DNA of 51,529 nucleotides from Candidatus Uhrbacteria bacterium (lineage in GTDB: Bacteria > Patescibacteriota > Patescibacteriia > UBA9934 > GWF2-40-263), in assembly GCA_016209325.1 (NCBI GenBank), contig JACQWJ010000036.1:1-51529 (forward strand), written 5' to 3'. The notes under the pieces are model-generated. The model had not been told where the DNA came from. It did not search any database and saw nothing but the letters and a program-made list of their open reading frames with translations. How positions within the stretch are numbered: position 1 is the stretch's first letter; every line of letters begins with the position of its first letter. Below, piece after piece: positions 171 to 15,218 of this stretch. A program made the translations under genes and the position numbers.

Positions 171-941
171 TTAGAGCACCGACTCCAAGATGACGGGATA
201 CCGCTCACCACCTGCCACCACTTTTTCCAGAAACAGGCGGAGGATGCGGGAGGCGTCGGGGCTCGGGCGGAGCGCCGCGCGGAAGGCATCCTGGGTCTCC
301 TTGGGAATGCCGTAGTTCTTGCCGTAGTAGTCGATGCGGAACATCATGCCGTCCTCGTCCATTTCGGGATGGATGATCATGGCGTACAGGGGCTCGCCGG
401 GAAACGTGTAGGCCTGGATGGGGCTCCGTTCGCTTGAGACGAGATGCACCGCCCCCGCAGGCATGACTTCCAAATGGTCCTTGTGCCCGAGCTGGGCGTC
501 GAACCGGTCGGGAAGCTGTGAGAAGATCGGGCACGCGGCGGCGGCAGGCGTCTTTGAGACGAGAAACGTACCCGTCTCCTGACGCTCCAGATCATGCTTC
601 AATTCCCCACCGAGGGCGAGTGTCACGAACTGGGCACCGAAGCAGACGCCGAGCGTAGGCAGCCCGCGGCGGCGGGCTTCACGGATGAGGGTCTTTACCT
701 TCTCCGCGACCTCGGGAATGTGGCCCTGGGTCAACAGGTAATCCCCACTGCCGCCAAGCATGAGCGCATCAACGCCGTCCAACAAGGAGAAATCCAAATC
801 CGCCTCAAGGGCGTTCACAGCCCTGATTTGATCCAAGCGCATGCCGGCATGCGCGGCAAAACCTTCGACTTCGTGTTCGCACACAAGGGGATCGGGACGA
901 AATTGGAGGAGGAGGATGCGGAGGGTATCTGTAGAAGGCAT
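171..941 (-). CDS. class I glutamine amidotransferase (GuaA-like / COG0518-type GATase1)
   Basis: 256-aa ORF. Nucleophile elbow GVCFGAQ and His-Glu pair in IIHPEMD. Length is typical of a standalone GATase1. Confidence 0.8.
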   Translation of the reverse strand: MPSTDTLRILLLQFRPDPLVCEHEVEGFAAHAGMRLDQIRAVNALEADLDFSLLDGVDALMLGGSGDYLLTQGHIPEVAEKVKTLIREARRRGLPTLGVCFGAQFVTLALGGELKHDLERQETGTFLVSKTPAAAACPIFSQLPDRFDAQLGHKDHLEVMPAGAVHLVSSERSPIQAYTFPGEPLYAMIIHPEMDEDGMMFRIDYYGKNYGIPKETQDAFRAALRPSPDASRILRLFLEKVVAGGERYPVILESVL

Positions 942-1001: not shown

Positions 1002-1036
1002 AAAAAAAGAAAAAAGACCCAGGAGTGCTGGATCTT
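1002..1036 (-). terminator. rho-independent terminator after ATP-grasp paralog 1
   Basis: Minus-strand stem AGAUCCAG/CUGGGUCU followed by UUUUUUCUUUUUUU, 17 nt after the stop at 1053. Near-duplicate of the terminator at 2738-2771. Confidence 0.6.
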
Positions 1037-1052
1037 CGAAGAAAAAAGAACG

Positions 1053-2411
1053 TTATGAGGCGGGAGCCTCCAGTCGATGAAGAGCGGCCCAGAGGAGCTC
1101 CTCGGCTCGTGCGATGTTACTCGCGATGGCGACGAGGATGCATCCCGGTGCGTCCAGTGACAAAGCGCCGGGCTTAACGAGCAGAATCCCCTCCGTGCTA
1201 TTTGGTCCGAACACGATATCGCCATACCCGTCCGGGTGATCCGCAAGAACCCGCACGACGTCCCGCCAGTGTCGAGCCGTCGCGGGGTGGCAGGCATGCA
1301 TCACCACGCAGGGATGGGGAACCCTGCCGGAGTCAGCAACTTGAGAACGCACGCTTGCGGCGTACGTTCCCGCCGTCTTGCGCACGTTTGCCTCCAAAAA
1401 ACAGACGTGGAAGGAAGATCGACCGTCAAACGTGACGATCACGTCGAACCCGACATACCCGACGCATTGGGCCTGCCAGAGGTGTTGCGCGAACTCCTCG
1501 CTCTGTCGCCAAACCTCCTCCACGATCCGCCCCCGAACTTCTTCCGGCCAATGCGCGGGAAGAGCGTCCCATTCGTCGGTGCAGACCGCGTTGCCTTGGT
1601 GTTCCCCGGCGACTGTATACTGCTTGGAAAAGAAGATCCGCTCCATCGCATTCGGAGCCAACGGAACGTAAAGCTGACAGGAAGCCACACAGACCTCTTC
1701 TCCTTCGTCGCCCACGTGGGCTTCGATAATGAGACGACGCTCCCCGAGGAACTGTTGAAGGTATGTATCGATGACCTGTCGGAGAGTATCACGGGAGATG
1801 AGGAGGGTCCCGATCCCCGACTCCATGTCGGGCCTTTTGAGCCAGACCTTGGGGTAGCGTTCCAGGAGATCACGCAGGTGCCGACGCACCTCCTCCTCCG
1901 TCATCCCGAAGCGGTGCTCCGGGAAGCAGTGACTGAGACCGAGCGCGCCCGCTTCGATACGGAAGTATTCCTTGTCGTCGAAACGCTGTGCGATTTGGTA
2001 CCAGTCATCATACGTTGGAGTTCTCAGCTTGTGCCTGGGAGGGTCGATTATCCTGATGCAATCCTTCCAGGCCAAGCTGGCACCCGTAAATGTCTCGAAC
2101 GTCGCCCCATTTGCGAGCTGGGAACGAAGCCATGCACATTCTGCCGGATCATTTACGATCGCGTCGAGGATTGAACAATCCCGCGCATCTACGACCCGAA
2201 GTCCCCTTACGCCGATTCCGCTCGGAAGCAGGTGTTCCTGATGGTACTCACGCAGACTCGCGGCGTTATCATCCGAACCATCCACGTAAGCGATGGTGTC
2301 TTTACCTTCTAGCAAGGTACGTTGGGCATACACCGCGACTCCTGGAATGTGCCCCTTAAGCACGTGTTGATAATGAAAGAGACAATCGGCAACGATGCGA
2401 GCTCCAAACAT
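1053..2411 (-). CDS. ATP-grasp superfamily ligase, paralog 1 (carboxylate-amine/peptide ligase type)
   Basis: 452 aa. KRPDMESGIG (nucleotide-binding strand-loop) and FLEANVRKTAGTY (E-x-N Mg/ATP motif). Alignable along its length with ORF 2795-4171. GGAGG SD 5 nt upstream of the ATG. Confidence 0.65.
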   Translation of the reverse strand: MFGARIVADCLFHYQHVLKGHIPGVAVYAQRTLLEGKDTIAYVDGSDDNAASLREYHQEHLLPSGIGVRGLRVVDARDCSILDAIVNDPAECAWLRSQLANGATFETFTGASLAWKDCIRIIDPPRHKLRTPTYDDWYQIAQRFDDKEYFRIEAGALGLSHCFPEHRFGMTEEEVRRHLRDLLERYPKVWLKRPDMESGIGTLLISRDTLRQVIDTYLQQFLGERRLIIEAHVGDEGEEVCVASCQLYVPLAPNAMERIFFSKQYTVAGEHQGNAVCTDEWDALPAHWPEEVRGRIVEEVWRQSEEFAQHLWQAQCVGYVGFDVIVTFDGRSSFHVCFLEANVRKTAGTYAASVRSQVADSGRVPHPCVVMHACHPATARHWRDVVRVLADHPDGYGDIVFGPNSTEGILLVKPGALSLDAPGCILVAIASNIARAEELLWAALHRLEAPAS

Positions 2412-2533
2412 GACAGCCTCCGGTTGTGGCGTGGGTGATATGTTCGATTGGACGAGAACGGTCGGTCCTCCCGGATTGGAGGACCGGGAACGGCGCGAAG
2501 GATTCGCGCGATTCCTGGGTGTCCAAGGGTCGG

Positions 2534-2570
2534 AAGAAAAATGAAAGCCGCCGGTTTTTACCGGCGGCTT
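2534..2570 (-). terminator. hairpin plus U-tract inside the leader of ATP-grasp 1 (attenuator or terminator)
   Basis: Minus strand AAGCCGCCGG-uaaaa-CCGGCGGCUU followed by UCAUUUUUCUUCC, about 134 nt upstream of the start at 2411. Confidence 0.5.
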
Positions 2571-2599
2571 GATCTGTGGGGCTTGTGACGCGAGGCGTG

Positions 2600-2683
2600 C
2601 TACAAACGACCAAATCTTACCACCGGGAGGTCCAGTAGGCTAAGAAGGCCGAGAAGGTTGTTTGAACGAAAGTCGCGGTGCAT
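2600..2683 (-). CDS. mini-ORF P1 (27 aa, MHRDFRSNNLLGLLSLLDLPVVRFGRL); coding status uncertain
   Basis: ATG lies 9 nt after the predicted -10 box and has no SD (would be leaderless). Same position as the mini-ORFs in the other two cassettes. Could equally be non-coding leader RNA. Confidence 0.2.
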   Translation of the reverse strand: MHRDFRSNNLLGLLSLLDLPVVRFGRL

Positions 2684-2692
2684 ATCGATTCG

Positions 2693-2721
2693 AGCGTAGC
2701 AAACCGCATGGAAAAGGTCAA
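2693..2721 (-). promoter_or_regulatory. candidate extended -10 promoter of cassette 1
   Basis: Minus strand TTGACC, 17 nt, (TGc)TACGCT. Same TGnTACGyT box as at 4462 and 6840. Confidence 0.45.
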
Positions 2722-2737
2722 ACGACGCAATTTGGAT

Positions 2738-2771
2738 AAAAATGAAAAAAGACCCAGAAAGACTGGATCTT
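2738..2771 (-). terminator. rho-independent terminator after ATP-grasp paralog 2
   Basis: Minus-strand stem AGAUCCAG/CUGGGUCU plus UUUUUUCAUUUUU, 24 nt after the stop at 2795. Confidence 0.6.
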
Positions 2772-2794
2772 GAAGTCGAAAAAAGGACGTGGCG

Positions 2795-4171
2795 TCAGCA
2801 GCCTGCCTCGAGGCGAGCGGCGGCGGCGTTCATGAGTCGTTCGGCCTCTTCCGGAGTGGAAGCAACCGACATGACGATGCACTTGGGATGACCCTGCTTC
2901 CGAAGAAGCCTCGGATTCAGGACAAGGACGCCGCGATGTTCTCGATTCATCGCCAGGTCCCCAAACCCGTCTCGATCGCTCTCGGAACCCAAAAGACTGA
3001 CCGCCTTCTCCCAGTGATCGATTCCGGAATGTGGATGACAGTTCCTCATGGCGACGCAGGGCTTCAGCGTATGACCGAACTGTTGCACCTGCCAGCGGAC
3101 GCTTTCCGGATACGTCCCGGCGGTTTTGCGCGCGTTGGCCTCTAACAGAAAGAACTGGAACGAGAGACCATCGGAATTCAGTGCCGTGATAAAATCAAAC
3201 CCGATATGCCCGACGTACCCACGCTCCTGTGCGTCTCTGACGAACGTCTCGGTGGTGTGCCATGCCGTCTGGGTGATTGCCTGGCGGGTGGAGTAGTCCC
3301 ATGTCGCGGGAAACGCGTCCGCCTCGTCATGCGGAATCATATTCCCCTGGTGAATCGTGCCGTCGCAGTACTGGCGGCTCAAAAAGCGCCGTTGGGGTTT
3401 CTTGCCGGGCGGAGGAACATACCATTGGACCGAACCGACCGCCTTTTCCTCGCCGTCGATCCACCGCTCAACGATGAGATTTCGCGATCCTTGGGCGTAC
3501 TTGCGAAGGAAGGGAAGAAGACCGGCCCAGGAACGAGTGTCGTGCAGGACATGGAATCCCACGCCGCTTTCCAGGTCAGGCCTCTTGACCACAATTCGGG
3601 GATGACGGAGGCGGAGACGGAGGCAGTCCCAGATAGTTCCCTGAATTCCATGGGAAAAGGTATGCGCAGGAAAGACGTCGCTCCTGCCGATCTGACGGGA
3701 CAGACGACGAAATCCCTCCTTGTCATGCAGTGTTTTGGCCACATCCCACGGCGCCGTACGGATACGTTCCGAAGGAATCTGGAGTTCGGCAAGAAGACGC
3801 CCCCATCCTGGAGAAGCTCCGGTAAACGTCTCAAGAGTGGCGTCCAGGTCGAAAAAAAGTTCTCTGTACAGACGATCACGATGCTCGGGATCGGAGAGAA
3901 TCCCGTCGAAGAGGTTTCCGGACCCCTCGACGAATCTGAGCTCTTTGGCGCCCAGGCCGAACGCCCGCAGATACCGGTGATGGTCACTCATGTATTGAAG
4001 ATGAGGACCTCCCTGAAGGTAGACTGCGCCGTAAGGCAGAACTTCTGCCCGATCGGGATACAGCTCGATCCCGTCAATCTCCCCAATATGGAGGCCGTCC
4101 GCATTGGGGGTCGTGAAAACACTCATGTCGTCGATGGCCCTTCTGTGAAGGGTGGGGAATACGTTTCGCAT
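2795..4171 (-). CDS. ATP-grasp superfamily ligase, paralog 2
   Basis: KRPDLESGVG and LLEANARKTAGTY. Shares ETFTGAS and the C-terminal ...RLEA with paralog 1. Start trimmed to ATG 4171 (MRNVF...), which has GGAGAG 4 nt upstream. The track ORF extends to a GTG at 4339. Confidence 0.65.
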   Translation of the reverse strand: MRNVFPTLHRRAIDDMSVFTTPNADGLHIGEIDGIELYPDRAEVLPYGAVYLQGGPHLQYMSDHHRYLRAFGLGAKELRFVEGSGNLFDGILSDPEHRDRLYRELFFDLDATLETFTGASPGWGRLLAELQIPSERIRTAPWDVAKTLHDKEGFRRLSRQIGRSDVFPAHTFSHGIQGTIWDCLRLRLRHPRIVVKRPDLESGVGFHVLHDTRSWAGLLPFLRKYAQGSRNLIVERWIDGEEKAVGSVQWYVPPPGKKPQRRFLSRQYCDGTIHQGNMIPHDEADAFPATWDYSTRQAITQTAWHTTETFVRDAQERGYVGHIGFDFITALNSDGLSFQFFLLEANARKTAGTYPESVRWQVQQFGHTLKPCVAMRNCHPHSGIDHWEKAVSLLGSESDRDGFGDLAMNREHRGVLVLNPRLLRKQGHPKCIVMSVASTPEEAERLMNAAAARLEAGC

Positions 4172-4286
4172 CTTACTCTCCGAGTGGGGGTGAAACGAAT
4201 CACGTGGACAGGAAGGCGACTCCAACAGGTGAAGCCGCCTTCCGTCCCCGCGAAAATGGACCAGCAATGAAAGGAACGGATCGAAA

Positions 4287-4315
4287 GAGCCGTCGGACCA
4301 GGGTCCGGCGGCTCT
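4287..4315 (-). terminator. 13-bp hairpin in the leader of ATP-grasp 2 (attenuator or terminator)
   Basis: Minus strand GAGCCGCCGGACC-cug-GGUCCGACGGCUC (one mismatch) followed by UUUCGAUCCGUUCCUUUCAUU. Lies between the mini-ORF stop (4339) and the start at 4171. Confidence 0.45.
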
Positions 4316-4338
4316 CGTTGTATCTGCGCTTATGAGCA

Positions 4339-4449
4339 CTAGAACATCGTCGAGGCCACCGGAGTGCCAAGAATGACAAGCATAATGACGATCATGTCGA
4401 CATTACGGCTCACCAGCTTCTTGTGCATTCCAGTGGTTGCGGAGAACAT
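4339..4449 (-). CDS. mini-ORF P2 (36 aa, MFSATTGMHKKLVSRNVDMIVIMLVILGTPVASTMF); hydrophobic, coding status uncertain
   Basis: ATG lies 12 nt after the predicted -10 box. One predicted TM-like stretch. Same cassette position as P1 and P3. Confidence 0.25.
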   Translation of the reverse strand: MFSATTGMHKKLVSRNVDMIVIMLVILGTPVASTMF

Positions 4450-4461
4450 AGTGCTATTTAA

Positions 4462-4490
4462 AACGTAACATGGGGTATGTGGAGCGTCAA
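4462..4490 (-). promoter_or_regulatory. candidate extended -10 promoter of cassette 2
   Basis: Minus strand TTGACG, 17 nt, (TGt)TACGTT. Confidence 0.45.
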
Positions 4491-4554
4491 GAATCGACGG
4501 GGAAAAGGGGAAGCAAGAGGTGTAAGGGGCGTAGGGGGACGGTTGGGGATTCAA

Positions 4555-4650
4555 ATGTCGAATCTGGCATGCCTACTGGCAGGCAGGCGAATAGGCGAAT
4601 GTGGGTTGGGTGGGACAAGGGGTAAGATCCTTCCCGAGGCGGTCAGGATG
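4555..4650 (+). repeat. partial copy (A) of the GGCGAATAGGCGAATGTGG palindromic repeat family
   Basis: GGCGAATAGGCGAATGTGGGTTGGGTGG (4586-4613) is identical to 5243-5270. Flanked by the CTGGCAGGCAGG motif. Confidence 0.6.
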
Positions 4651-4679
4651 GTGGATTGCTTTGGGTTGTAAAAAGGATG

Positions 4680-4904
4680 TTAGGAAAGATGAACTTGCAG
4701 GACTTCCAAAGACACTCCGATGTCATCCAGGATACCTCGAAGGGTACCAAGAGGGATTTCTTTTGAGTGCATCGGAATGACGGCCATACGGCCGTCGGTG
4801 TGGCGGTAAATCGCATGGCTTCCGCGTTGCCTGACCAATGCAAAACCGAGACACTGAAGCGCGGATGCCAGCTGTCTCGGCTTGATGAGCGGTGGCTTAG
4901 GCAC
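4680..4904 (-). CDS. hicA: type II toxin HicA (mRNA interferase)
   Basis: (V)PKPPLIKPRQLASALQCLGFALVRQRGSHAIYRH... is a classic HicA N-terminus with the GSH motif. GTG start at 4904 overlaps the hicB stop by 8 nt. Confidence 0.8.
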   Translation of the reverse strand: MPKPPLIKPRQLASALQCLGFALVRQRGSHAIYRHTDGRMAVIPMHSKEIPLGTLRGILDDIGVSLEVLQVHLS

Positions 4905-5151
4905 GCTTCTTTGCGGGGACGCGGGGCCGTTCCATGGATACGGTGTGGAACGTCTCGAAGCTTTCGTCACGGGGGATGGCGTCCCCCCGGTCGTTCAAGA
5001 CTTCCAAGTAGAGCTCCATGGCTTCCTGGACATGGACGCGCGCCTGCGTAATGGTCTTGCCAACGGTATGGCAACCAGGCAGGGCTGGGACGTAGGCATG
5101 AAAGTGCTTGCCGTCCGGCTCGATGATAACGCGGTAGGTGTATTGATTCAT
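4897..5151 (-). CDS. hicB: type II antitoxin HicB (UPF0150 family)
   Basis: MNQYTYRVIIEPDGKHFHAYVPALPGCHTVGKTITQARVHVQEAMELYLE... is the hallmark HicB fold sequence. Only the last 84 codons of the 271-aa track ORF are plausible. Confidence 0.8.
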   Translation of the reverse strand: MNQYTYRVIIEPDGKHFHAYVPALPGCHTVGKTITQARVHVQEAMELYLEVLNDRGDAIPRDESFETFHTVSMERPRVPAKKRA

Positions 5152-5210
5152 AAAAAATACTGGAATGCAAGTAAAACGTATCACACCCACGAGCCTATTA
5201 AAAGGACGCG

Positions 5211-5372
5211 TGAGCGATTGGGGGTCCGAATGGCGAATCGTGGCGAATAGGCGAATGTGGGTTGGGTGGTTGGATTTTGTTGTAGAGAGGGGTAACCCCT
5301 CCTTAGTCCTCCCCTCAGGCGAGGGGAGGAAATACGATTCCAGATTCGTCATTTGCTTCCAGGCAGTTTTTG
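5211..5372 (+). repeat. full MITE-like copy (B) of the palindromic repeat family
   Basis: Left arm is CGAAT-rich (GAATGGCGAATCGTGGCGAATAGGCGAATGTGG). Central hairpins are GAGGGGtaaCCCCTC and CCTCCCCTCaggcGAGGGGAGG. Right arm is ACGATTCCAGATTCGTCATTTGCTTCCAGGCAGTTT. Confidence 0.65.
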
Positions 5373-5404
5373 GGAAAAAGAAAAAGAGGGTGGAAGACAC
5401 CCTC
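5372..5404 (-). terminator. rho-independent terminator after ATP-grasp paralog 3
   Basis: Minus-strand stem GAGGGUG/CACCCUC overlaps the stop codon and is followed by UUUUUCUUUUUCCC. Confidence 0.55.
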
Positions 5405-6602
5405 AGGAGAGTCGGAGCTTGCGCTCCTCGACTCGTGAGACGAGATCGAGAAGCTTGGTTGTGGTCGGGGCGATGGCCACCCCGTAGGAGAAGCCCCTGC
5501 CCGGAGCCGTCTCGACCTTGGGAAGGAAGCAGAAGGGGACGAACCCCCAGCCTTCCCCGCGACGGAACAGGAGGTCGCGGAAGTGGCCTTCGAGGTCGTG
5601 GATCGTCGCGCCGGTCGGCACGGCGAAGCTCCGCATGTCGAAAGCGAAGCGAGCACTTTTTCCGCCGTACCAGGTCTGCAGCGCTTCGAGGGCGTAGGAG
5701 GCGGCGGTCCACCTCGCGTTGACTTCGAGAGCCCAGACGAGCGACTTGAAGAGATCACAGAGGAAATCGACGGAACCTCTGCCGAAATATCCAATATCCT
5801 TCAGGCGAACGACAATCCGTCGCGTGATCTCCCGCATCTTGAGTCGGAGACGGATCGGGAGTTCCGGAGCGCCGTCCAGTCCGACTCCTGCGGGACGCCA
5901 GTTCCCGCAGTGCGTTTTATGGTCTTTAACATGTTGGCGCGTAACGGGACCGATCGCGACCCGGCCGTTCTGGTCGATCGAGAACTGGACACTCGCGTCG
6001 ACCAACGCGTCTCCCCCGATGTCCGTCTGAACAACGTAGGAGTCTGGCGGAAGGTCCAGTATGGGATCTCCCGGTTGGAGAACCCATTGATATAGACCAC
6101 TCGCGGAGTCGGCCGCCTTGATCCGAGGAACCCCTCCCTTCTCACGGATGCGCGCCACGGCGGCCGGAACATCGTCCCGAGTCTGGCACACGATTCCGTA
6201 AGGGAGGCAGTTGTCCGGATCGTTACCGAAGGCCTTCTGAAAGAAAACCTTGCTGTTTACCATGAGCGAAAACTCCCGCACGGGGCAACGCAATCGACAA
6301 CTGACACCGGCAGCATCTCGATGAAGGGACACGGACGTTCCGGAAAACGGATCGATTTCCCTTCCCTCGAGACCCGTCAAGCTGTTCCGCACGTTCGCGA
6401 CGGGCGTAGGCCCGATGCCCAAGCGATTCAGAAGGAGCACTTCGTCCTGAACAGAACCCTGCGGTTCTTCCACGACGACGATGTCGTTAGCGTCCGCGCA
6501 CAAGAGCGCGCGGCGATCGAATTGACTAAGAAGCTCAAGGCTGAACGCCGTGTGACGGATAACATCTTTCGTTCTGTGACAGTAGACACGTTGTCGACTC
6601 AT
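5403..6602 (-). CDS. ATP-grasp superfamily ligase, divergent paralog 3
   Basis: 399 aa. RIKAADSASGLY and ALEVNARWTAASY (E-x-N motif, same context as paralogs 1 and 2). GGGGAGG SD 7 nt upstream. Confidence 0.55.
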   Translation of the reverse strand: MSRQRVYCHRTKDVIRHTAFSLELLSQFDRRALLCADANDIVVVEEPQGSVQDEVLLLNRLGIGPTPVANVRNSLTGLEGREIDPFSGTSVSLHRDAAGVSCRLRCPVREFSLMVNSKVFFQKAFGNDPDNCLPYGIVCQTRDDVPAAVARIREKGGVPRIKAADSASGLYQWVLQPGDPILDLPPDSYVVQTDIGGDALVDASVQFSIDQNGRVAIGPVTRQHVKDHKTHCGNWRPAGVGLDGAPELPIRLRLKMREITRRIVVRLKDIGYFGRGSVDFLCDLFKSLVWALEVNARWTAASYALEALQTWYGGKSARFAFDMRSFAVPTGATIHDLEGHFRDLLFRRGEGWGFVPFCFLPKVETAPGRGFSYGVAIAPTTTKLLDLVSRVEERKLRLS

Positions 6603-6685
6603 CGGAAACCTCCCCGATTATTGGGTTGTAGGGAAATGTTTGTCTCGTCTCAGAGATGTGGGAGCAAAACTCGCCACACCTCACT

Positions 6686-6726
6686 CAAAAAGACAAAACC
6701 AAACGGCCGCCCTTCCGGGCGGCCGT
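6686..6726 (-). terminator. hairpin plus U-tract in the leader of ATP-grasp 3 (may also terminate dnaE)
   Basis: Minus strand ACGGCCGCCC-ggaa-GGGCGGCCGU followed by UUGGUUUUGUCUUUUU. Confidence 0.6.
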
Positions 6727-6754
6727 GCTTTGCTTGCGTATTCCTTACGCCTGC

Positions 6755-6826
6755 TCAACGACGAAACCACCCGGCTTGGGGAAAGCCGAAGGTAAACAGG
6801 GGAAAGATGAAATTCTGCGTCGTCAT
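6755..6826 (-). CDS. mini-ORF P3 (23 aa, MTTQNFIFPLFTFGFPQAGWFRR); coding status uncertain
   Basis: ATG lies 13 nt after the predicted -10 box. The start and stop codons sit in opposite arms of a long-range helix. Confidence 0.2.
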   Translation of the reverse strand: MTTQNFIFPLFTFGFPQAGWFRR

Positions 6827-6839
6827 ACGAGCAGGGGTG

Positions 6840-6867
6840 AGCGTAGCATGTTGGCTGAAACTGTCAA
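6840..6867 (-). promoter_or_regulatory. candidate extended -10 promoter of cassette 3
   Basis: Minus strand TTGACA, 16 nt, (TGc)TACGCT. Confidence 0.45.
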
Positions 6868-6870
6868 TCG

Positions 6871-6985
6871 TTGAGAGCGATTGGGGGGCCGAAAAACGAA
6901 TCATGGCGAATAGGCGAATGTGGATTGGGGTGGTTGGGAAGGTGTGACCCCTCCTTAGTTCTCCCCTCGGGGGAGGGGAGGAAAA
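6871..6985 (+). repeat. copy (C) of the palindromic repeat family
   Basis: TGAGAGCGATTGGGGGG...GGCGAATAGGCGAATGTGG...CCCCTCCTTAGTTCTCCCCTCGGGGGAGGGGAGG. Ends 5 nt from the dnaE stop codon. Confidence 0.65.
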
Positions 6986-6990
6986 CAACT

Positions 6991-9900
6991 TCATCCCTTC
7001 ACCCACCGCACATGCTGGCGGCCGACGAGGGAGGCCAAGGCGTCGAGGAAGGCGTCGGAGACGGCGACGGCGTAGTCGGTCTGGACGCGGCGGGGCTTGC
7101 CCTGGGACTCAAGGATGAAGCAGACCCGCTCGGGACCGGGGGCGGAGGTGAAAAGCGAGCGGAGCTGCTCCACGAGGTCGTGCGCGGGCTTGCCAACGAG
7201 GACGATCTCGAGCCCGAGCAGCGGAGGCGCTGACGCGGGAACTGCGGCGGACGGCAGGGGAGCCGAGGGTGACCCGGCGGCCGCATCCGGGGGCGTGGCA
7301 GGCGGGACGGAAGCGGCGTGCGCCGGCGGAGGCGTGGGATCGGCGGGCGCGGACGCGGCCTGGCCGCCCCCGTCCATCCTCAGCCATGCGAGGGCCTGGT
7401 CCACATTGTCCTCGTCGACGAGGAGGAAGTAGTTGGCGAGAAGCTTCGGTTCCTCGCCCTCGCGGCGGGAGACCTTGGCCCCCACGATGACCACACGCTC
7501 GGGCAGGAGGAAATCCTGGGAGGAGAGGAAGACCTTGGGGAAGCACACCACCTCGGTCTTCGTCCGGCCGTCCTCAAGTTCGACGAAGGCCATACTGTCG
7601 CCCTTCTTCGTGACGATCTTCTTGACCGAGCTTACGAGGCCCCCGCAGCGGACGACCGCCCCCTCGGGAGAGGCGACGGCGTCGGCAAGGGAGATGACGA
7701 AGGACGCGAGGCGAGGCGCGACGGCGTGGTAGGGGTGGGCGCTGACGTACAAGCCGAGGACTTCCTTCTCCCACCCGAGGAGCTCGCCGCGCTTGGCCGC
7801 CGCCGAGGCCGGGCGCAGGCGGAGCTTCTCCTGGACAAGGGCCGGGGCGAGGTCGAAGAGCGACGACTGGTTCTGGGAGGACTGCTGCTGGGCCTGACGG
7901 TTGAAGAGGAGGATCTGGTCTACGTTGTCGAGAAGTTGGCGGCGCTCGCCGAAGCGGTCGAGGGCCCCGGACTTCGCGAGCGCCTCGAGCGACTTCTTGT
8001 TGAACGCGCGGTGATGGACGCGCTCGGCGAAGTCCGTCAGGTCGATAAACGGGCCGCGGGCCTCGCGCTCGGCGATAATCGCCTGAATGACTTCTTCCCC
8101 CAGGTTCTTAATGACGAGCAGGCCGAAACGGATCGTCTGGTCGTCGATGTAGGTGAAGGTGGAAAGGGACTCGTTCACGTCGGGCGGCAGCACCTTGATC
8201 CCCAGCCGCTCACACTCCTTGACCGCATCGGCCACCGTGTCGAGGTCGCCGGACTCGGCGGTCATGAGGGCCGACATGTACTCGGCGGGGTAATTCGCCT
8301 TCAAGTACGCCGTGTAATAGGCGATCATGCCGTAGCTCGCGGCGTGGGCCTTTCCGAAGCCATACGCAGCGAATGGTTCGATCAGCTTCCAGAGTTCCTT
8401 TGACTTCGACGCGGACAATCCGCCCGCGACCAACCCATCGATCAGCTTGTCCTTCTGTTTCTGCATTTCCTCCGGGATCTTCTTTCCCATCGCTTTGCGT
8501 AACTTGTCCGCCTCGAGCCATGAGTACCCGGCCATCTTGATCGCGATGAACATCACGTCTTCCTGGTACACGATCACGCCATACGATGATTCCAAAAACT
8601 CCTTCATCCGCGGGTCGAGGTAGCTCACGAGGGACGGGTCGTGCTTCCTCCGGATGTACTCGGGGATCGACTCGATCGGGCCCGGGCGGTAGAGGGCGAC
8701 CATGGCCATGATGTCCTCGATGCGCTCAGGACGGAGCTCCATGAGGTACTTCGTCATGCCGTCGCCGTTTAACTGGAACGTACCCATGGTGTAGCCCTTC
8801 GCGAGGAGCTCAAACGTCTTCGGATCGTCGACGGGAATCCGCTCGAGGTCGATGTCGAGATCCTTGATGTGCTTCAGGATCTTCACCGCGTCCCCGAGAA
8901 TCGAGAGGTTCCGGATCCCGAGGAAGTCCATTTTGAGGAGGCCCGCAGCTTCCACGGACTTCATCTCATACTGGGTGATGACCTTCCCTTCCTTGGTTTC
9001 CACCTGGAGGGGCGTGAACTCGGTCAGGGGCTCGGGAGAGATGACGACGCCGGCGGCGTGGATCGAGACGTGGCGGGCGCAGCCCTCGATGCGGCGCGCG
9101 AGATCTATGAGGCGCTTCACCTGGGGGTCGGCGTCGTACTGCTTCTTCAGGTCCTCCGCCTCCTCGAGCGCACGCTCGAGAGTCATGGGAAATCCCTGGC
9201 TGCCCATCGGGACCAACTTCGCGATCTGGTCGACAAAGCCGTAGGGGATGCCGAGCGCGCGGCCGACGTCACGGATGCTCCCGCGCGCCATCATGGTCCC
9301 GAACGTACAGATCTGGGCCACCTTATCCTTGCCGTATTTCTCGGTGACGTAGGCCAGCATCTCGTCGCGGCGGTTGTCGGCGAAGTCCGCGTCAACGTCC
9401 GGGGCCGAGGGGCGCTCAGGGTTCAGAAAGCGCTCGAAGGGGAGCTTGTAGCGGAGGGGATCCACGCTCGAGATGCCGATCGCGTAGCTGACAAGCGAGC
9501 CGGCGGCCGATCCGCGGGTGGTGGTCACAATACCGTTCTTCCGGGCCCACTCGATGTAGTCGGAGACGATCAAAAAGTAGGGGGCGAACCCCTTTACCTC
9601 GATGACGGAAAGCTCGTAGTCAATGCGCTGCCGCATCTCCTCGGTGAGCTCAGGGACCTTGCGGGCAAGTTCGGCATACGCCCGCTGACGCAGGTACTCC
9701 AAGTGGGTCAGCCCATCAGGCACTTCGAAGTGGGCGAAGTTCCATTTTCCAAGCTCGAACGTGACGTTGCAGCGGTCGGCGATGACGCGGGTATTCTCGA
9801 TCGCTTCCGGAACGTCCTTGAACTGCTCTTCCATCTCCTGCGGCGAAACGAATGAGGCATCGTAGTCATATGCCTGCAGGCGCTCGAACTGTTCCAAGGT

Positions 9901-10650: not shown

Positions 10651-10953
10651 CTAGGATACTTTGTCTTCCACATCGCCGGACTTGTGGTCGCGCTTCTTCT
10701 CGACCGCGTACTCGACCACCCGCTTGACGCCCTCGGCCAGGATGCCGATGCCGGAGGTGGCCTTCTCGAAGCGGCCCTTGATGGAGGTGAGGGCTTCCTC
10801 GATGCGGCCGATCTTCTCGCGGGCGTCGGCCATGGTCTCGTTGACGTTCTTCAGGATCATGGCGATCTGCCAGATGAGCCAGCAGACGAAGGCGGTGAAC
10901 CAGAGCGCGCAGAAGGCGAGGACGATGAAGAGGATATCTTTTGATTCGAACAT
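10651..10953 (-). CDS. small N-terminally anchored coiled-coil membrane protein (DUF948-like?)
   Basis: 100 aa. One TM (ILFIVLAFCALWFTAFVCWLIW) followed by a helical, charged segment. Confidence 0.5.
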   Translation of the reverse strand: MFESKDILFIVLAFCALWFTAFVCWLIWQIAMILKNVNETMADAREKIGRIEEALTSIKGRFEKATSGIGILAEGVKRVVEYAVEKKRDHKSGDVEDKVS

Positions 10954-10957
10954 ACAG

Positions 10958-11489
10958 AGAGACGATTGAGGAGCGAATTACGAATCCGGACGAATATGCG
11001 AATGTGGACGGATTTCCCCTCCTTCCCTAAGGAGGGGACTAAGGGGAGGTCACTTCTTACAAGCGTTTCCAATGGCTTCCAAGACTCCCTCCAAGTTATC
11101 AAAAACATCACGATTGGAAAACCGAATGACTTGGAGACCGACGGAGGCGAGGTACTCCGACCGACGCTGGTCATACGCTTCGGCCTCTGGCGTCCCGTGC
11201 GCATTTCCGTCAAGCTCTACGACCACTCTCGTTGCAGGACAGTAAAATCAACGATGTAGGGACCGATGCCTTGCTGACGACGGAATTTATATCCCATCTG
11301 CTTACCCTTCAGATGATTCCAAAGAACGACCTCGGCAGGAGTCATTTCATTTCTCAACGCGCGACGCCGGGAAAGGTTAATCGGATCGTTGAAGAGGACT
11401 CCCATAGGTGTGACCTCCCCTTAATCCCCTCCTTGAGGAAGGAGGGGAGATATGACCATGTTCGGCATTCGGACCCCCAATCGCTCTCA
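10958..11489. mobile_element. DUF559 endonuclease gene bracketed by inverted copies (D, E) of the palindromic repeat
   Basis: Inner ends: CCCCTCCTTCCCTAAGGAGGGGACTAAGGGGAGGTCA (11016-11052) versus the reverse complement of 11411-11447, CCCCTCCTTCCTCAAGGAGGGGATTAAGGGGAGGTCA. The outer arms are CGAAT-rich on both sides. Confidence 0.6.
11050..11405 (-). pseudogene. DUF559 (Vsr-like) endonuclease-domain gene with a -1 frameshift in a T-run
   Basis: Frame A: ...ALRNEMTPAEVVLWNHLKGKQMGYKFRRQQGIGPYIVDF. After the run at 11244-11247 (4 T where 5 would keep frame) the other frame reads PATRVVVELDGNAHGTPEAEAYDQRRSEYLASVGLQVIRFSNRDVF...*. Could be a homopolymer assembly error. Confidence 0.7.
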
Positions 11490-13946
11490 TCTCATCGTAG
11501 CAGAAAAACGGGCGGTCAACACCTGACGCAGGGATTCCATACAGGCGTCTACTTCCTCGGACGACAGGGTCTGATCGTCGGCCCGGAACTCCAGGTGGAG
11601 CGCGAGGGATTTCTTGCCCTCCGGAATTCCCTTCCCCGCGTACGTGTCGAACAGCTCGACATCGACCAAAAGGGGTGCGGCGGCATGCATGGCGAGCTCG
11701 AGATCCGTGTAGGTGACGTCCTTATTGACGACGAACGCAAGATCCCGCTTGACTGAAGGGAACGGCGGAATCGGATGGTAGGTCAGTTCCCGCGCCGGAA
11801 AGGCGGCAAGCAACGATAGGTTTACCTCGCCAACAGCAACCTTGGCCTCGATACCGAGGTCTGTGGCCCGTTGCGGTAATACTTCTGCGAGGTAACCTAC
11901 CGCTTCGCCATCCACAGTAATCGCGGCGCTACGTCCAGGATGCATCCAAGACGCAAGGTCAGACATGGGGAGGAAGGTTGGGGTGTATCCCAACGCACGG
12001 AGCGCGCCCGCGCACAGACGTTTCAGTTCACGGAACGGAAAGATGTCGCCCTTCTTCGCGAAGACGAGTCCGAGTACATGGTCTTGATGAGGAAGCGGCG
12101 ATCCTCCTTCCCCGTTTTCGTCACCAGGAATTTCAGGAACGTACGTACGAGCCACCTCGAACAGGCGAACCGTGTCCGTTTGTCGTTGATTCTTTTCGAC
12201 GTTCTCGAGTAAGTTCGGCACAAGCGTCCGGGCAACATACGGCCGCTCTTTGGAAATAGGATTGGCTAATTGAATGTACCGCGCGGCGTCTTCCCCCAAA
12301 TAGGCAAGCGTGGCAGGACTCGTAAAACTATAATTATACGTTTCGGTTGCCGCGAAACGTTCGGCGAGAATCGAACGCACACGCCGTTCCAGTACCCGCA
12401 TGGGATCCGGTGTGGGCGGCCTGAGGTCCATGCGTGGGAGCGTAGGGGGTATACGCTCATAGCCGTAAATACGCGCCACTTCTTCAACGAGATCCTCGAA
12501 AATCGAAATATCCTTGGTCGCACGCCAACTCGGAATGGTTACAAGATATGCTTCTCCGTCCTGTTTCAAGCCGAATCCCAACCGCTCAAGGATGCCGATG
12601 GCGGTATCAACGGGAATGTTCACACCCAATTTCTGATCCAGACGTTCCAAAGAAAATGGAATCGGACCCTGTTTCAGCTCAAACCGACCGACATCCACGA
12701 CGGGCGAGGCGACCCGCGCGCCCGGAACAAGTTCTAACAGGAGTTCTACCGCACGACGCAGGGCCAGGTCGGACAGATTCGGATCTAGTCCTTTTTCATA
12801 CCGCAAGGATGCTTCGGAACGCAGTCCCAAACGTTGGGATGTTTTACGGATCCAAGAAGGGTGAAAATTTGCGGATTCCAAAAATACGGTCGTGGTTTCC
12901 TCACCGATTTCGCTGTTGTGCCCACCCATAACCCCCGCCAAGGCCACAGCCTTCTTTGCGTCCCGGATGACGAGATCGGACGGACCGAGTTCCCGCTCGG
13001 TATCATCGAGGGTCACGAACCGCTCGCCGGACACAGCGGGACGGACCTCGATCTCGATCGTGCGCGGCTTACTCAACACGTTCTCCAACTTGGCGGCATC
13101 AAAGGCATGGAGTGACTGCCCAATTTCCAGCATCACATAATTTGTCACGTCAACAACAATGTTGACAGGGCGCACACCTACGGCCCGCAGACGTTTTTGC
13201 ATCCACTCCGGAGACGTTTCGATGCGGATGCCGTCGAGGACAACACCCATGTAACGCGGGCAGGCAGCAATGTCGGTTACGTTCACCAATACCTCATACT
13301 CCGTTTCCTCTGAAACAACGGGCGGCCGTCGGTCCTTGAAGGTCGTCCCAAGGAGTGCCCCAACCTCGCGTCCCATGCCACGATGGCTGAAGAGGTCCGG
13401 ACGGTTGGTGAGTGATTTGTTGTCCACGTCAAATACGACATCGTCGAGTCCCAAGACTTCCGCAAGCGGCGTGCCTGGCGGGGCATCCCATCCGCTAAGG
13501 TCGACGATTTCGCGCTCACCTTCGTTTCCAGTGGCTGTGCCGATCTCGTTGGCTGCACAAATCATACCGAACGACTCAACGTCGCGCAGCTTTGTCAATT
13601 TGATTTCAACTAGCTCCCCTTCCCCGTGCCATTTGACCCTAGCCCCCACCAGGGCAACCGCGACCTTCATGCCCGCCAAAAGATTCGTGCCGCCGCATAC
13701 TATTTGCAACGGTTCCCCTTGTCCCGCATCCACCCGGCATACGCGGAGCTTGTCCGCATTGGGATGCGCTTCAACCGCAAGAAGGACGCCCACCACGATC
13801 CGTTCCAACGGGGCGGCCTGGGACGAAATTTCTTCCACCTCCACCGTGCTCAAGGTAATACGACGGGCGAGTTCCTCGTCGGACAGGTCTTCGGGAAGCT
13901 CGACAAATTCTTGGAGCCACTTCTTGGAAACCAACATACCATCCAT
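11487..13946 (-). CDS. pheT: phenylalanine--tRNA ligase beta subunit
   Basis: 819 aa with tRNA-binding N-terminal domain, B3/4, B5 and C-terminal FDX-ACB-like regions. Immediately follows pheS. Confidence 0.93.
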   Translation of the reverse strand: MDGMLVSKKWLQEFVELPEDLSDEELARRITLSTVEVEEISSQAAPLERIVVGVLLAVEAHPNADKLRVCRVDAGQGEPLQIVCGGTNLLAGMKVAVALVGARVKWHGEGELVEIKLTKLRDVESFGMICAANEIGTATGNEGEREIVDLSGWDAPPGTPLAEVLGLDDVVFDVDNKSLTNRPDLFSHRGMGREVGALLGTTFKDRRPPVVSEETEYEVLVNVTDIAACPRYMGVVLDGIRIETSPEWMQKRLRAVGVRPVNIVVDVTNYVMLEIGQSLHAFDAAKLENVLSKPRTIEIEVRPAVSGERFVTLDDTERELGPSDLVIRDAKKAVALAGVMGGHNSEIGEETTTVFLESANFHPSWIRKTSQRLGLRSEASLRYEKGLDPNLSDLALRRAVELLLELVPGARVASPVVDVGRFELKQGPIPFSLERLDQKLGVNIPVDTAIGILERLGFGLKQDGEAYLVTIPSWRATKDISIFEDLVEEVARIYGYERIPPTLPRMDLRPPTPDPMRVLERRVRSILAERFAATETYNYSFTSPATLAYLGEDAARYIQLANPISKERPYVARTLVPNLLENVEKNQRQTDTVRLFEVARTYVPEIPGDENGEGGSPLPHQDHVLGLVFAKKGDIFPFRELKRLCAGALRALGYTPTFLPMSDLASWMHPGRSAAITVDGEAVGYLAEVLPQRATDLGIEAKVAVGEVNLSLLAAFPARELTYHPIPPFPSVKRDLAFVVNKDVTYTDLELAMHAAAPLLVDVELFDTYAGKGIPEGKKSLALHLEFRADDQTLSSEEVDACMESLRQVLTARFSATMR

Positions 13947-13949
13947 CCT

Positions 13950-14969
13950 TCAAAATTGCGCAAGAAATCGCACGTCTCCGCTCTGCATGAGACGGCTATC
14001 ATCGATGCCGTACTTAAGCATGGCCAGACGGGACAGACCGAAACCGAATGCAAAGCCTTGATACGTGTTCGGATCCAACCCGCCCGCTTCCAGAACCCTG
14101 GGATGAACCATGCCGCCCGGCATGGCTTCCAACCACCCGGTGTTCTTGCACACCCGACATCCCTCTCCGGCACACAAAAAACAATTCAATTCTCCACGGA
14201 CCCCCGGTTCGACGAACGGATAAAACTTGGGCATGAGCCGCAACTTGGTATCTGGACCAAACAGATGGACCGCGACAGCTTCCATGACACCCTTCATGTG
14301 CGAGAAGGTGATGCCTTTATCGATAACCAACCCCTCCAGCTGGTAAAACGTGTGCTCGTGACGGGCATCGGTCGCCTCGTTGCGGAAACACCGGCCCGGC
14401 GCAATCATTCGGATCGGTGCCCCGTACTTACGCATAGCCCGAATCTGGACAGGCGACGTTTGGGTACGCATTACCTGATCCGGATGGCCCTTGATATAAA
14501 AAGTGTCCTGCATGTCCCTGGCCGGATGGTCGGGCGGCATATTCAGAGCCGTAAAGTTGTAATAATCGCTTTCGAGTTCTGGTCCGTCGAGCACCATGAA
14601 CCCCATCGAAATGAACAAATCCTCAAGTTTCTGCTGAATCAAGGTAACCGGATGGATGTGACCAATTGACTCCTCCGGAAACACAGGCGCAGTCACGTCG
14701 ATCCATTCCTCTTCGCGGACCGCGCGCGAGCGAAGCTCCGATTCCGCGCGAGCGAACGCCTCTTCCATGGCGCGCTTGGCCTCGTTGGCGGAAGGGCCGA
14801 CGGCCCGGCGTTCGTCTTCGGATAGGTCCTTGAGACCCGTCATGAGATCGGCTAGACGCCCTTTGCGACCGAGGAATTCCGTACGGACGGATTCCAGGAT
14901 GTCCTTATCTTGCGCCGCCGAAAGGGCCGCATCGAAGGCCTTTTTCAGTTCATCAAATTTCTGGTGCAT
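13950..14969 (-). CDS. pheS: phenylalanine--tRNA ligase alpha subunit
   Basis: 339 aa with class II aaRS motifs (HPARDMQDTFY, FRNEA...H.F.Q.EG, GFAFGFGLSRLAM). Confidence 0.95.
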   Translation of the reverse strand: MHQKFDELKKAFDAALSAAQDKDILESVRTEFLGRKGRLADLMTGLKDLSEDERRAVGPSANEAKRAMEEAFARAESELRSRAVREEEWIDVTAPVFPEESIGHIHPVTLIQQKLEDLFISMGFMVLDGPELESDYYNFTALNMPPDHPARDMQDTFYIKGHPDQVMRTQTSPVQIRAMRKYGAPIRMIAPGRCFRNEATDARHEHTFYQLEGLVIDKGITFSHMKGVMEAVAVHLFGPDTKLRLMPKFYPFVEPGVRGELNCFLCAGEGCRVCKNTGWLEAMPGGMVHPRVLEAGGLDPNTYQGFAFGFGLSRLAMLKYGIDDSRLMQSGDVRFLAQF

Positions 14970-15068
14970 ACACAGCAGTTCTCGAATGGGATCTATTTGA
15001 CGAGATTCGATACGTTCGCTATTATTCAGGCATCACCAACGGAAAGCAAGCCCTGTAAGGTCCCGTCC

Positions 15069-15209
15069 TTACGGGGCCCTTTCTTTTACAGCAAGCCTGT
15101 CGCGAAGATCGTTCATGTAACGAAGGAATAGGCGCATGTTCTTGAACTTCAGGAGTCCTGAGAACCGGCGGTTGAGATTCTGACTGTCGATGAAGGCGTA
15201 ATTTTCCAT
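15069..15209 (-). pseudogene. 46-codon ORF resembling the N-terminus of an NYN/LabA-like domain (remnant?)
   Basis: MENYAFIDSQNLNRRFSGLLKFKNMRLFLRYMNDL... resembles the (A/I)FIDG.NL ... (K/R)F(R/K).(Y/F)L pattern. Its stop sits in a 10-bp hairpin (15052-15077). Confidence 0.2.
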
Positions 15210-15218
15210 GACAAGACC

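Follow-up and report, generated by a model that had tools for sequence, protein, structure and literature searches.

We analyzed a window of 51,529 nt from a Candidatus Uhrbacteria bacterium (assembly GCA_016209325.1, contig JACQWJ010000036.1, positions 1 to 51,529). The window harbors three units with one shared layout, all on the minus strand: a promoter, a short open reading frame (mini-ORF), a hairpin, a gene for a predicted ATP-grasp ligase that is led by a Shine-Dalgarno (SD) sequence, and a terminator. These units had been noticed in an initial annotation, which considered the mini-ORFs either as peptides that are modified or used by the adjacent ligases or as parts of cis-regulatory attenuators. 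Here, we describe the three cassettes and their relatives in other genomes and weigh these explanations. The evidence is computational throughout.

Layout of the three cassettes

The layout can be summarized as TTGACn, a spacer of 16 or 17 nt, TGnTACGyT, an ATG after 9–13 nt, an ORF of 23–36 codons, a GC-rich hairpin and, after a further ~100–135 nt, the SD-led gene. All positions given for the cassettes refer to the minus strand. Exact matches to TTGACN(16–19)TANNNT were present at all three sites that had been proposed as promoters. The promoter of cassette 1 (2693..2721) consists of TTGACC, a 17 nt spacer and the extended -10 element TGcTACGCT, that of cassette 2 (4462..4490) of TTGACG, a 17 nt spacer and TGtTACGTT, and that of cassette 3 (6840..6867) of TTGACA, a 16 nt spacer and TGcTACGCT. 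The motif TGNTACGYT occurs 4 times in 51.5 kb, with 1.16 occurrences expected, and all 4 copies lie inside this 7-kb island; the fourth copy, at 5175-5183, is found upstream of hicB.

The -10 hexamer is followed after 9, 12 or 13 nt by the ATG of the mini-ORF. Leader ORF P1 (2600..2683, 27 aa, MHRDFRSNNLLGLLSLLDLPVVRFGRL) starts 9 nt past the -10 hexamer. P2 (4339..4449, MFSATTGMHKKLVSRNVDMIVIMLVILGTPVASTMF) has 36 aa and P3 (6755..6826, MTTQNFIFPLFTFGFPQAGWFRR) has 23 aa, so that all three mini-ORFs were recovered with the sequences first assigned to them. The hairpins behind the mini-ORFs were also recovered, but only two of them with the U-rich tail that had been claimed for all three. The attenuator terminator of cassette 1 (2535..2570, -21.1 kcal/mol) consists of an 11-bp GC-rich hairpin (2545-2570) and a U-rich tail, and that of cassette 3 (6686..6726, -23.2 kcal/mol) of a 10-bp hairpin with nearly only G-C pairs (6703-6726) and a U-rich tail. 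Both hairpins were called as minus-strand intrinsic terminators. The hairpin of cassette 2 (4286..4315) has a strong stem with -18.8 to -20.4 kcal/mol; the tail behind it, UUUCGAUC, makes a poor U-tract, and the terminator caller reported it on the plus strand only.

The distances from the hairpins to the gene starts (133, 115 and ~100 nt) and the SD sequences GGAGG, GGAG and GGGGAGG ahead of the ATGs agreed with the initial annotation. The genes encode W1 (1053..2411, 452 aa, SD GGAGG at 2417-2421), W2 (2795..4171, 458 aa from the SD-led ATG) and W3 (5403..6602, 399 aa). Each gene ends in a terminator (1013..1037 for W1, 2749..2771 for W2 and 5386..5404 for W3), and the first two of these are 85% identical across 34 nt. 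The three leaders folded far better than shuffled sequences (z = -6.1, -6.5 and -5.7). When they were aligned to each other, homology was limited to the promoter, and no further attenuator-like leaders were found elsewhere in the window.

Amino acid bias of the mini-ORFs

The mini-ORFs differ strongly in their composition. P1 has 8 Leu among 27 residues, of which 7 fall into one 10-residue window (LLGLLSLLDL). P3 has 6 Phe among 23 residues, with 5 of them in one 10-residue window (FIFPLFTFGF). P2 contains nine consecutive I/V/M/L residues and in total 5 Met, 5 Val and 3 Ile. The genome-wide frequencies are 10% for Leu, 4.2% for Phe, 4.6% for Ile and 1.9% for Met. As a null set we used the 192 small ORFs of the same window, with the leader ORFs still included. 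The level of P1 (7 Leu in 10) was reached by 1 of the 192, the level of P3 (5 Phe in 10) by none, and the level of P2 (9 of 10 residues I, L, V, M or F) by 1. Minor codons (CTT/CTA, TTT, ATT) are over-used inside the runs, and 4 of the 7 Leu codons of the P1 run are the minor codons CTT or CTA.

In a permissive scan, leader 3 aligned over the full length of the Rfam model Phe_leader (RF01859) with a score of 25.2 bits; the E value was 0.67 when 6.2 kb were scanned and 0.022 for 201 nt. The other leaders did not match any Rfam family. T-box elements, riboswitches and known small RNA families were rejected as candidates, since Rfam gave no T-box or riboswitch match at E up to 5 for the window region or at E up to 1 for eight related loci.

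Complementarity between the mini-ORF ends and the terminators

We examined 19 leaders, the three from the window and 16 from related Patescibacteria/Uhrbacteria metagenome loci. The 5' arm of the terminator was compared with the upstream sequence, and the complementarity was scored against dinucleotide shuffles. In 17 of the 19 leaders, this 5' arm and the final mini-ORF codons were complementary. For the first 15 leaders (3 from the window and 12 from relatives), the single p values ranged from 0.003 to 0.07 and the Fisher combined p was 5.6e-14, a value in which leader L020 was counted with a wrong hairpin; with the right terminator, L020 gave a non-significant p = 0.25. The pairing partner consisted of the last mini-ORF codons or was located at or just past the stop codon in 14 of these 15 leaders, the exception being the mis-scored L020. 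Three further leaders gave p values of 0.003–0.02 each. As a negative control, we applied the same test to 16 gene-end terminators from the same sequences, including those of W1, W2 and W3. No complementarity to the upstream sequence was detected for this set (median p = 0.75, combined p = 0.999).

In cassette 1, segment 2 (CCCGGUGGUAAGAUU, codons 19-24, 2613..2627) complements the terminator's 5' arm and is a candidate for the strand of an antiterminator. The duplex has -17.1 kcal/mol compared to -12.3 +/- 2.4 for shuffled sequences (p = 0.04). Segment 1 (UCUUAGCCUACUGG, Leu codons 13-18, 2632..2645) pairs with segment 2 in the minimum-free-energy (MFE) fold without a ribosome. In cassette 2, segment 2 (CUCCGGUGGCCUCGA, codons 29-34, 4350..4364) complements CGAGAGCCGCCGGAC in the 5' arm of the hairpin with -25.6 kcal/mol compared to -14.4 +/- 2.5 for shuffles (p = 0.003), and the alternative fold was also predicted. 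Segment 1 of this cassette (CCACUGGAAUGC, codons 5-9, 4425..4436) closes a long hairpin with segment 2. In cassette 3, segment 2 (AAGCCGGGUGGUUUCGU, codons 17-22, 6761..6777) complements the 5' arm of the terminator with p = 0.06, and segment 1 (ACCUUCGGCUU, codons 12-15 for T-F-G-F, 6783..6793) pairs with segment 2. Thus, the MFE folds of leaders 1 and 3 both pair segment 2 with the segment that contains the Leu or Phe codons.

The hairpin begins 12–35 nt past the mini-ORF stop codon in all 19 leaders. In 13 of them, the ATG lies 8–13 nt past a TTGAC-spaced -10 hexamer and has no SD sequence, which implies leaderless or nearly leaderless translation. We also modeled the position of the ribosome by cutting the transcripts at the terminator loop and shifting a 28-nt ribosome mask codon by codon. 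The antiterminator was predicted when the A site was in or before the run and collapsed as the ribosome neared the stop codon. This predicted switch was clear in four leaders (W_L3 of cassette 3, L005_396, L009_384 and L005_374) and partial in three (W_L2 of cassette 2, L008 and L005_450). In cassette 3, the antiterminator was lost once the A site passed codon 15.

The ligases

None of the three proteins W1, W2 and W3 had a significant match in Pfam or NCBIfam. The label ATP-grasp given to them at first sight was therefore not supported by any direct Pfam match, but it was supported by the family profile and by a structure model. W1 and W2 are paralogs with 35% identity, and W2 is 51% identical to protein P0002 of a Patescibacteria metagenome-assembled genome (MAG). 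W3 is a distant relative and shares with W1 and W2 little beyond an LE-x-N-x-R motif. Homology searches with a word index recovered nothing beyond proteins of the window, and an exhaustive profile search retrieved 102 relatives among 1.84 billion cluster representatives. Logan contigs carrying W1 were 100% identical to the window.

A profile of 34 family members matched the PDB entries 8ynd ("ATP-grasp peptide ligase" from Streptomyces, 5e-19) and PGM1 (5e-18), and 7 of the 34 members matched Pfam ATP-grasp_3. The AlphaFold (AF2) model of W1, built from the alignment of these 34 sequences, had a predicted local distance difference test score (pLDDT) of 94.4. A Foldseek search with this model returned 8ynd, BesA and PGM1 with E values of 1e-18 to 1e-21 and template modeling (TM) scores of 0.61–0.75, at identities of only 14–17%; the entries 8ynd, 8yi6 and 3wvq were matched with 1e-19 to 1e-21. 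The profile centered on W3 matched LdmS (7r8p, 4e-10), 8ynd (4e-9) and PGM1 (6e-9). By this similarity in fold and profile, W1–W3 are predicted to be ATP-grasp carboxylate-amine ligases in the neighborhood of PGM1, BesA and LdmS. A graspetide (microviridin-type) system of peptides that are made on the ribosome and modified after translation (RiPPs) was rejected: no ligase of the MdnB/MdnC type was among the top 50 structural matches, and the peptides lack a conserved core.

Relatives and genomic context

The closest loci were found in MAGs of Patescibacteria and Candidatus Uhrbacteria and in related metagenome contigs. In these relatives, the architecture and the amino acid bias were kept, but the peptide sequence was not. 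The ortholog of W3 (Patescibacteria, 46% identical) follows a Phe-rich leader, MTRRSLPFFFGGFPFFQKAGGFVMGQG. The leader of a W2 ortholog contains ...KIISNVILFVILIP..., and leaders of the W2 clade include one with ...LCIIIIVTKR..., a leader of 39 aa with 11 Ile (MLKSTKHLSLSIIEIVIPMIILGIIILIKRK...) and one with ...MFAFFFILFG.... Leaders of several relatives are rich in Thr and Ile and resemble thrL.

Leaders of the same type were also present ahead of a gene for a GCS2-family ligase and ahead of genes for two proteins of 374 and 384 aa, which had no match in Pfam, NCBIfam or the PDB and are not ATP-grasp enzymes. Conversely, a clade of the ligases in Uhrbacteria (P0004; L009 5330-8308, L011-L013 ~5150-7300) has no mini-ORF or leader. 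The occurrence of one leader type ahead of unrelated genes, together with a ligase clade without leader, agrees better with a general regulatory device than with a pair of precursor peptide and enzyme. In the P0004 clade, the ligase gene follows a gene for glutamate racemase (TIGR00067, 151 bits), and in L009, a gene for a Peptidase_M19 dipeptidase is also present. This context hints at a link of this clade to D-glutamate or cell-wall peptide metabolism.

In most loci, the ligase gene is followed by a gene for a glutamine amidotransferase (GATase). In the window, this gene (171..941, minus strand, 256 aa) encodes a class-I glutamine amidotransferase or peptidase C26-like protein and has its own promoter-like site. 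It matched Pfam GATase with 4.7e-11 and NCBIfam PRK07567 with 9e-38, the latter below the curated cutoff of the model. A GATase gene downstream of the ligase was found in the window and in eight related loci (L005, L008, L016, L017, L018, L020, L031 and L032). In L032 (854-3274), the ligase/GATase pair is located beside the genes for prephenate dehydratase and prephenate dehydrogenase, and the GCS2-family carboxylate-amine ligase of this locus has its own leader, rich in Phe and other aromatic residues (MTHRQFTFTYFFGFW), and a terminator.

Probable attenuation by leader peptides and alternative explanations

We consider it likely that the cassettes represent three independent transcription attenuators of the classical type known from trp, phe, leu, ilv and thr, in which the ribosome on an amino acid-specific leader peptide would control one PGM1/BesA/LdmS-like ligase paralog each. 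Judged from the codon runs, the sensed amino acids would most likely be Leu for P1, Ile/Val/Met and possibly Thr for P2, and Phe for P3. This view agrees with one of the alternatives of the initial annotation, a cis-regulatory attenuator, and makes it more specific by leader peptides whose 3' ends complement the 5' arm of the terminator.

We infer that the strong sigma-70-type promoter starts a transcript few nt before the AUG of the mini-ORF and that the leader peptide is made from this leaderless or near-leaderless mRNA. With plentiful charged tRNA for the respective amino acids, the ribosome would reach the stop codon and cover segment 2. The GC-rich hairpin 12–35 nt downstream would then form, and transcription would end with an RNA of ~150 nt. 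If the charged tRNA is scarce, the ribosome would stall in the codon run, leaving segment 2 available for pairing with the terminator's 5' arm. The resulting antiterminator would let RNA polymerase read through, and the ligase would be translated from its own SD site.

Several observations weigh against this interpretation. The regulated genes, which encode PGM1/BesA/LdmS-like ligases, do not appear to be biosynthetic or tRNA synthetase genes for the sensed amino acid. The pheST genes of the window have neither a leader peptide nor a terminator in the inspected upstream region (14970-15218); in E. coli, pheST carries a Phe leader. The score of leader 3 is far below the gathering threshold of Phe_leader (25.2 versus 55 bits). 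In P2, no amino acid dominates by itself, the codon run sits between segments 1 and 2 and thus outside segment 1, and the hairpin of cassette 2 lacks a good U-tract. Two of the 19 leaders were weak in the complementarity test, L020 (p = 0.25) and L016, which has a poor hairpin. Leader 1 (W_L1) showed no change in the ribosome-position model. The hydrophobic runs could stem partly from a pyrimidine-rich helix strand, or the product could be a small membrane peptide. Finally, equilibrium folding of the full-length leaders, also with the ribosome mask, always favored the very stable terminators. Any switch must therefore be kinetic, as in classical systems.

An unlikely but not negligible alternative is that the leaders are untranslated structured RNAs, such as a riboswitch, a T-box-like or protein-controlled terminator/antiterminator, or a separate small RNA of ~150 nt, and that the ORFs are incidental. 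In its favor, the leaders folded much better than shuffles (z about -6), and the alternative between terminator and antiterminator exists with or without translation of the ORF. Terminated attenuator RNAs can act in trans in other bacteria (PMC6614838), which would be in line with a small RNA function. An incidental ORF, however, does not account for an ATG that follows the -10 hexamer after a short, fixed spacing and a reading frame that stops 12–35 nt before the hairpin in 19 of 19 leaders, nor for in-frame runs of a single amino acid that switch identity between paralogs. Upstream of segment 2, sequence and structure vary between genomes, unlike a ligand-binding aptamer, and not even at E up to 5 did Rfam return a riboswitch or T-box match.

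The initial annotation had favored RiPP-like units, in which the neighboring PGM1-like ligases would use P1–P3 as ribosomally made precursors or acceptors and a leaky terminator would set the ratio of peptide to enzyme, as in RiPP operons. The nearest solved structures do include PGM1, which attaches an acyl donor to peptides made by ribosomes, and the "ATP-grasp peptide ligase" of Streptomyces, and the mini-ORF, the hairpin and the ligase are kept together across several genomes. The likeness to PGM1 is nevertheless one of fold only and does not count as evidence for P1–P3 as substrates, so that of the proposed ligase acting on ribosomal peptides only the structural kinship was retained. The peptides of orthologous ligases share composition but not sequence, and no recognition or core motif was recognizable. 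Their runs of single amino acids (IIII, FFF, LLGLLSLL) are what sensory leaders typically show. Unrelated proteins are encoded behind leaders of the same type, the P0004 ligases do without a mini-ORF, and graspetide-type ligases were missing from the top 50 structural matches. The 3' ends of the ORFs are laid out for pairing with the terminator's 5' arm, which a leaky terminator does not need. We concluded that this explanation is unsupported and very unlikely.

The least probable explanation, that the mini-ORFs are separate short genes for small hydrophobic membrane peptides (type-I-toxin-like or accessory subunits) that merely lie upstream of the ligases, fits the hydrophobic stretches of 15–19 residues followed by basic residues in some leaders (L028 ...IIEIVIPMIILGIIILIKRK, L018 ...VLGVLGLCIIIIVTKR and similarly P2), but a membrane helix is out of reach for many leaders (P3 and L005_396, for instance, are rich in Pro/Gly, and L024 has 17 aa), no peptide sequence is conserved, neither an antisense RNA nor a toxin context was seen, and the complementarity between segment 2 and the terminator would be left unexplained.

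Further features of the region

Past the attenuator terminator and ahead of the SD sequence, every cassette contains 1–2 extra stable hairpins, and the same was observed in L005, L009, L017 and L018. In the window, these are two hairpins at 2463..2515 in cassette 1, one of them with CCUCC:GGAGG pairing, and one predicted hairpin each in cassette 2 (4204..4249) and cassette 3 (6653..6682). The extra hairpins often pair a GGAGG-like stretch with CCUCC and have no U-tract. They might add a translational layer to the regulation or stabilize the read-through mRNA.

A hicA/hicB toxin-antitoxin pair (4680-4901 and 4897-5151, minus strand) is located between cassettes 3 and 2, and the -10 element of its promoter is TGaTACGTT at 5175-5183. 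The repeat CACATTCGCCTATTCGCC, which shows ATTCG motifs every 8–10 nt, occurs 4 times on the minus strand (4586-4603, 5242-5259, 6905-6922 and 10989-11006) with 0.01 occurrences expected; longer copies span 5212-5332, 6875-6984, 10959-11050 and 11406-11450. Each copy of CACATTCGCCTATTCGCC lies 40–95 nt upstream of a promoter, namely that of cassette 2, of hicB, of cassette 3 and of a small ORF near 10951; the repeat is missing from cassette 1. A hairpin, TTCCTCCCCTC..GAGGGGAG-ACTAAGGAGGGGT, is attached to some of the copies. The repeat could be a binding site for a regulator or a small mobile repeat.

The genes pheT and pheS (11487-13946 and 13950-14969, minus strand) are found just upstream of dnaE. 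The DnaE protein (1212 aa) has a Pro/Ala-rich low-complexity insert of ~70% GC near its C-terminus (7200-7330, minus strand). In relatives, ndk is followed by a gene for a conserved protein of 341–375 aa (L005 3058-4182, L008 5549-6574, L009 2003-3130), of which no homolog is present in the window region. This protein had no match in Pfam, NCBIfam or the PDB; by eye, it contains RelA/SpoT-like motifs (HHRxK, DRxGxK, FE..). In L005, its gene has its own leader ORF and terminator.

Discussion

Leader-peptide attenuation is textbook biology. The mechanism proposed here for the three cassettes is thus already known; new are the lineage and the genes under its control. Among the papers searched, none described such attenuators in Patescibacteria or ahead of ATP-grasp genes.

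The cassettes resemble the enterobacterial attenuators pheA/pheL, leu/leuL, ilvGMEDA/ilvL and thr/thrL. Both have a short ORF with a codon run for the sensed amino acid, a terminator before the gene, and an ORF 3' end that can pair with the 5' arm of the terminator. Mixed Ile/Val/Leu leaders correspond to ilvL and Thr/Ile leaders to thrL, and leader 3 spans the whole Phe_leader model. The cassettes differ from the enterobacterial attenuators in their lineage (Patescibacteria), in their sub-threshold Rfam scores, in an ORF close to the 5' end without SD sequence and in the extra hairpins past the terminator. Furthermore, the regulated genes here encode ATP-grasp ligases, whereas biosynthetic or synthetase genes are regulated in enterobacteria. 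An ATP-grasp gene, that of the ligase LysX, behind an amino acid-specific leader-peptide attenuator has also been reported for the lysine cluster of Thermus thermophilus. LysX belongs to a defined carrier-protein pathway; neither a carrier protein nor pathway genes were seen here.

In mycobacteria, ribosomes stalled on leaderless short ORFs with poly-cysteine runs open a structure that hides the ribosome-binding site, resulting in translational control (Canestrari et al., bioRxiv 10.1101/834739). These loci share with the cassettes a leaderless sensory short ORF as first cistron, stalling in a run of a single amino acid, and the presence at several loci. Unlike in mycobacteria, a terminator hairpin with U-tract follows the ORF here, which points to transcriptional control, and other amino acids would be sensed.

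LdmS from the hmrA/ldmS operon of S. aureus is an L-aspartate-L-methionine ligase of the ATP-grasp type that is encoded behind elements responding to methionine starvation; these are CodY/CymR sites or, in some species, an S-box riboswitch (PMC9486568). Here, too, a gene for an ATP-grasp ligase stands beside a hydrolase-type gene and behind elements that would respond to amino acid shortage, and among PDB sequences LdmS matched the W3 profile best, although the similarity is remote. The Staphylococcus operon differs in its regulators, which are protein repressors or an S-adenosylmethionine (SAM) riboswitch and not leader peptides, and in the partner gene, which encodes an M20 amidohydrolase instead of a class-I amidotransferase. 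By analogy with LdmS under its methionine-starvation control, each ligase paralog may, as a weakly founded guess, handle the amino acid that its leader senses. PGM1 (the peptide ligase for pheganomycin), BesA (the gamma-glutamyl ligase for propargylglycine) and 8ynd share the overall fold and the domain order with the ligases described here. They differ by the low identity of 14–17%, and here a secondary-metabolite gene cluster is lacking and the conserved neighbor is a GATase, which, as far as examined, does not belong to those systems.

Patescibacteria are generally thought to lack most amino acid biosynthesis. It is possible, but rather doubtful, that the ligase and the amidotransferase form an amino acid starvation response peculiar to this group, in which each paralog acts on the amino acid of its leader. 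The module might produce gamma-glutamyl or dipeptide intermediates, which might then be processed by the C26-like amidotransferase, be it for salvage or synthesis or for an exchange with a host. In this case, the leader peptides would label the substrates of an enzyme family that otherwise defies annotation. A more extreme form of this idea, in which the leader peptide, once released, would double as acceptor for its PGM1-like ligase, is very unlikely.

The attenuators would control an uncharacterized ligase family with ~100 representatives in 1.84 billion protein clusters and a glutamine amidotransferase as usual neighbor. These cassettes also caution against taking every pair of a mini-ORF and an ATP-grasp gene as a RiPP locus. 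The amino acid of the leader (Leu; Ile/Val/Met; Phe; Thr/Ile in relatives) offers a concrete, testable guess at the role of each paralog and at the time when it is needed. If our interpretation is true, the cassettes would show how reduced, probably host-dependent bacteria sense the shortage of a specific amino acid and which enzymes they deploy in response.

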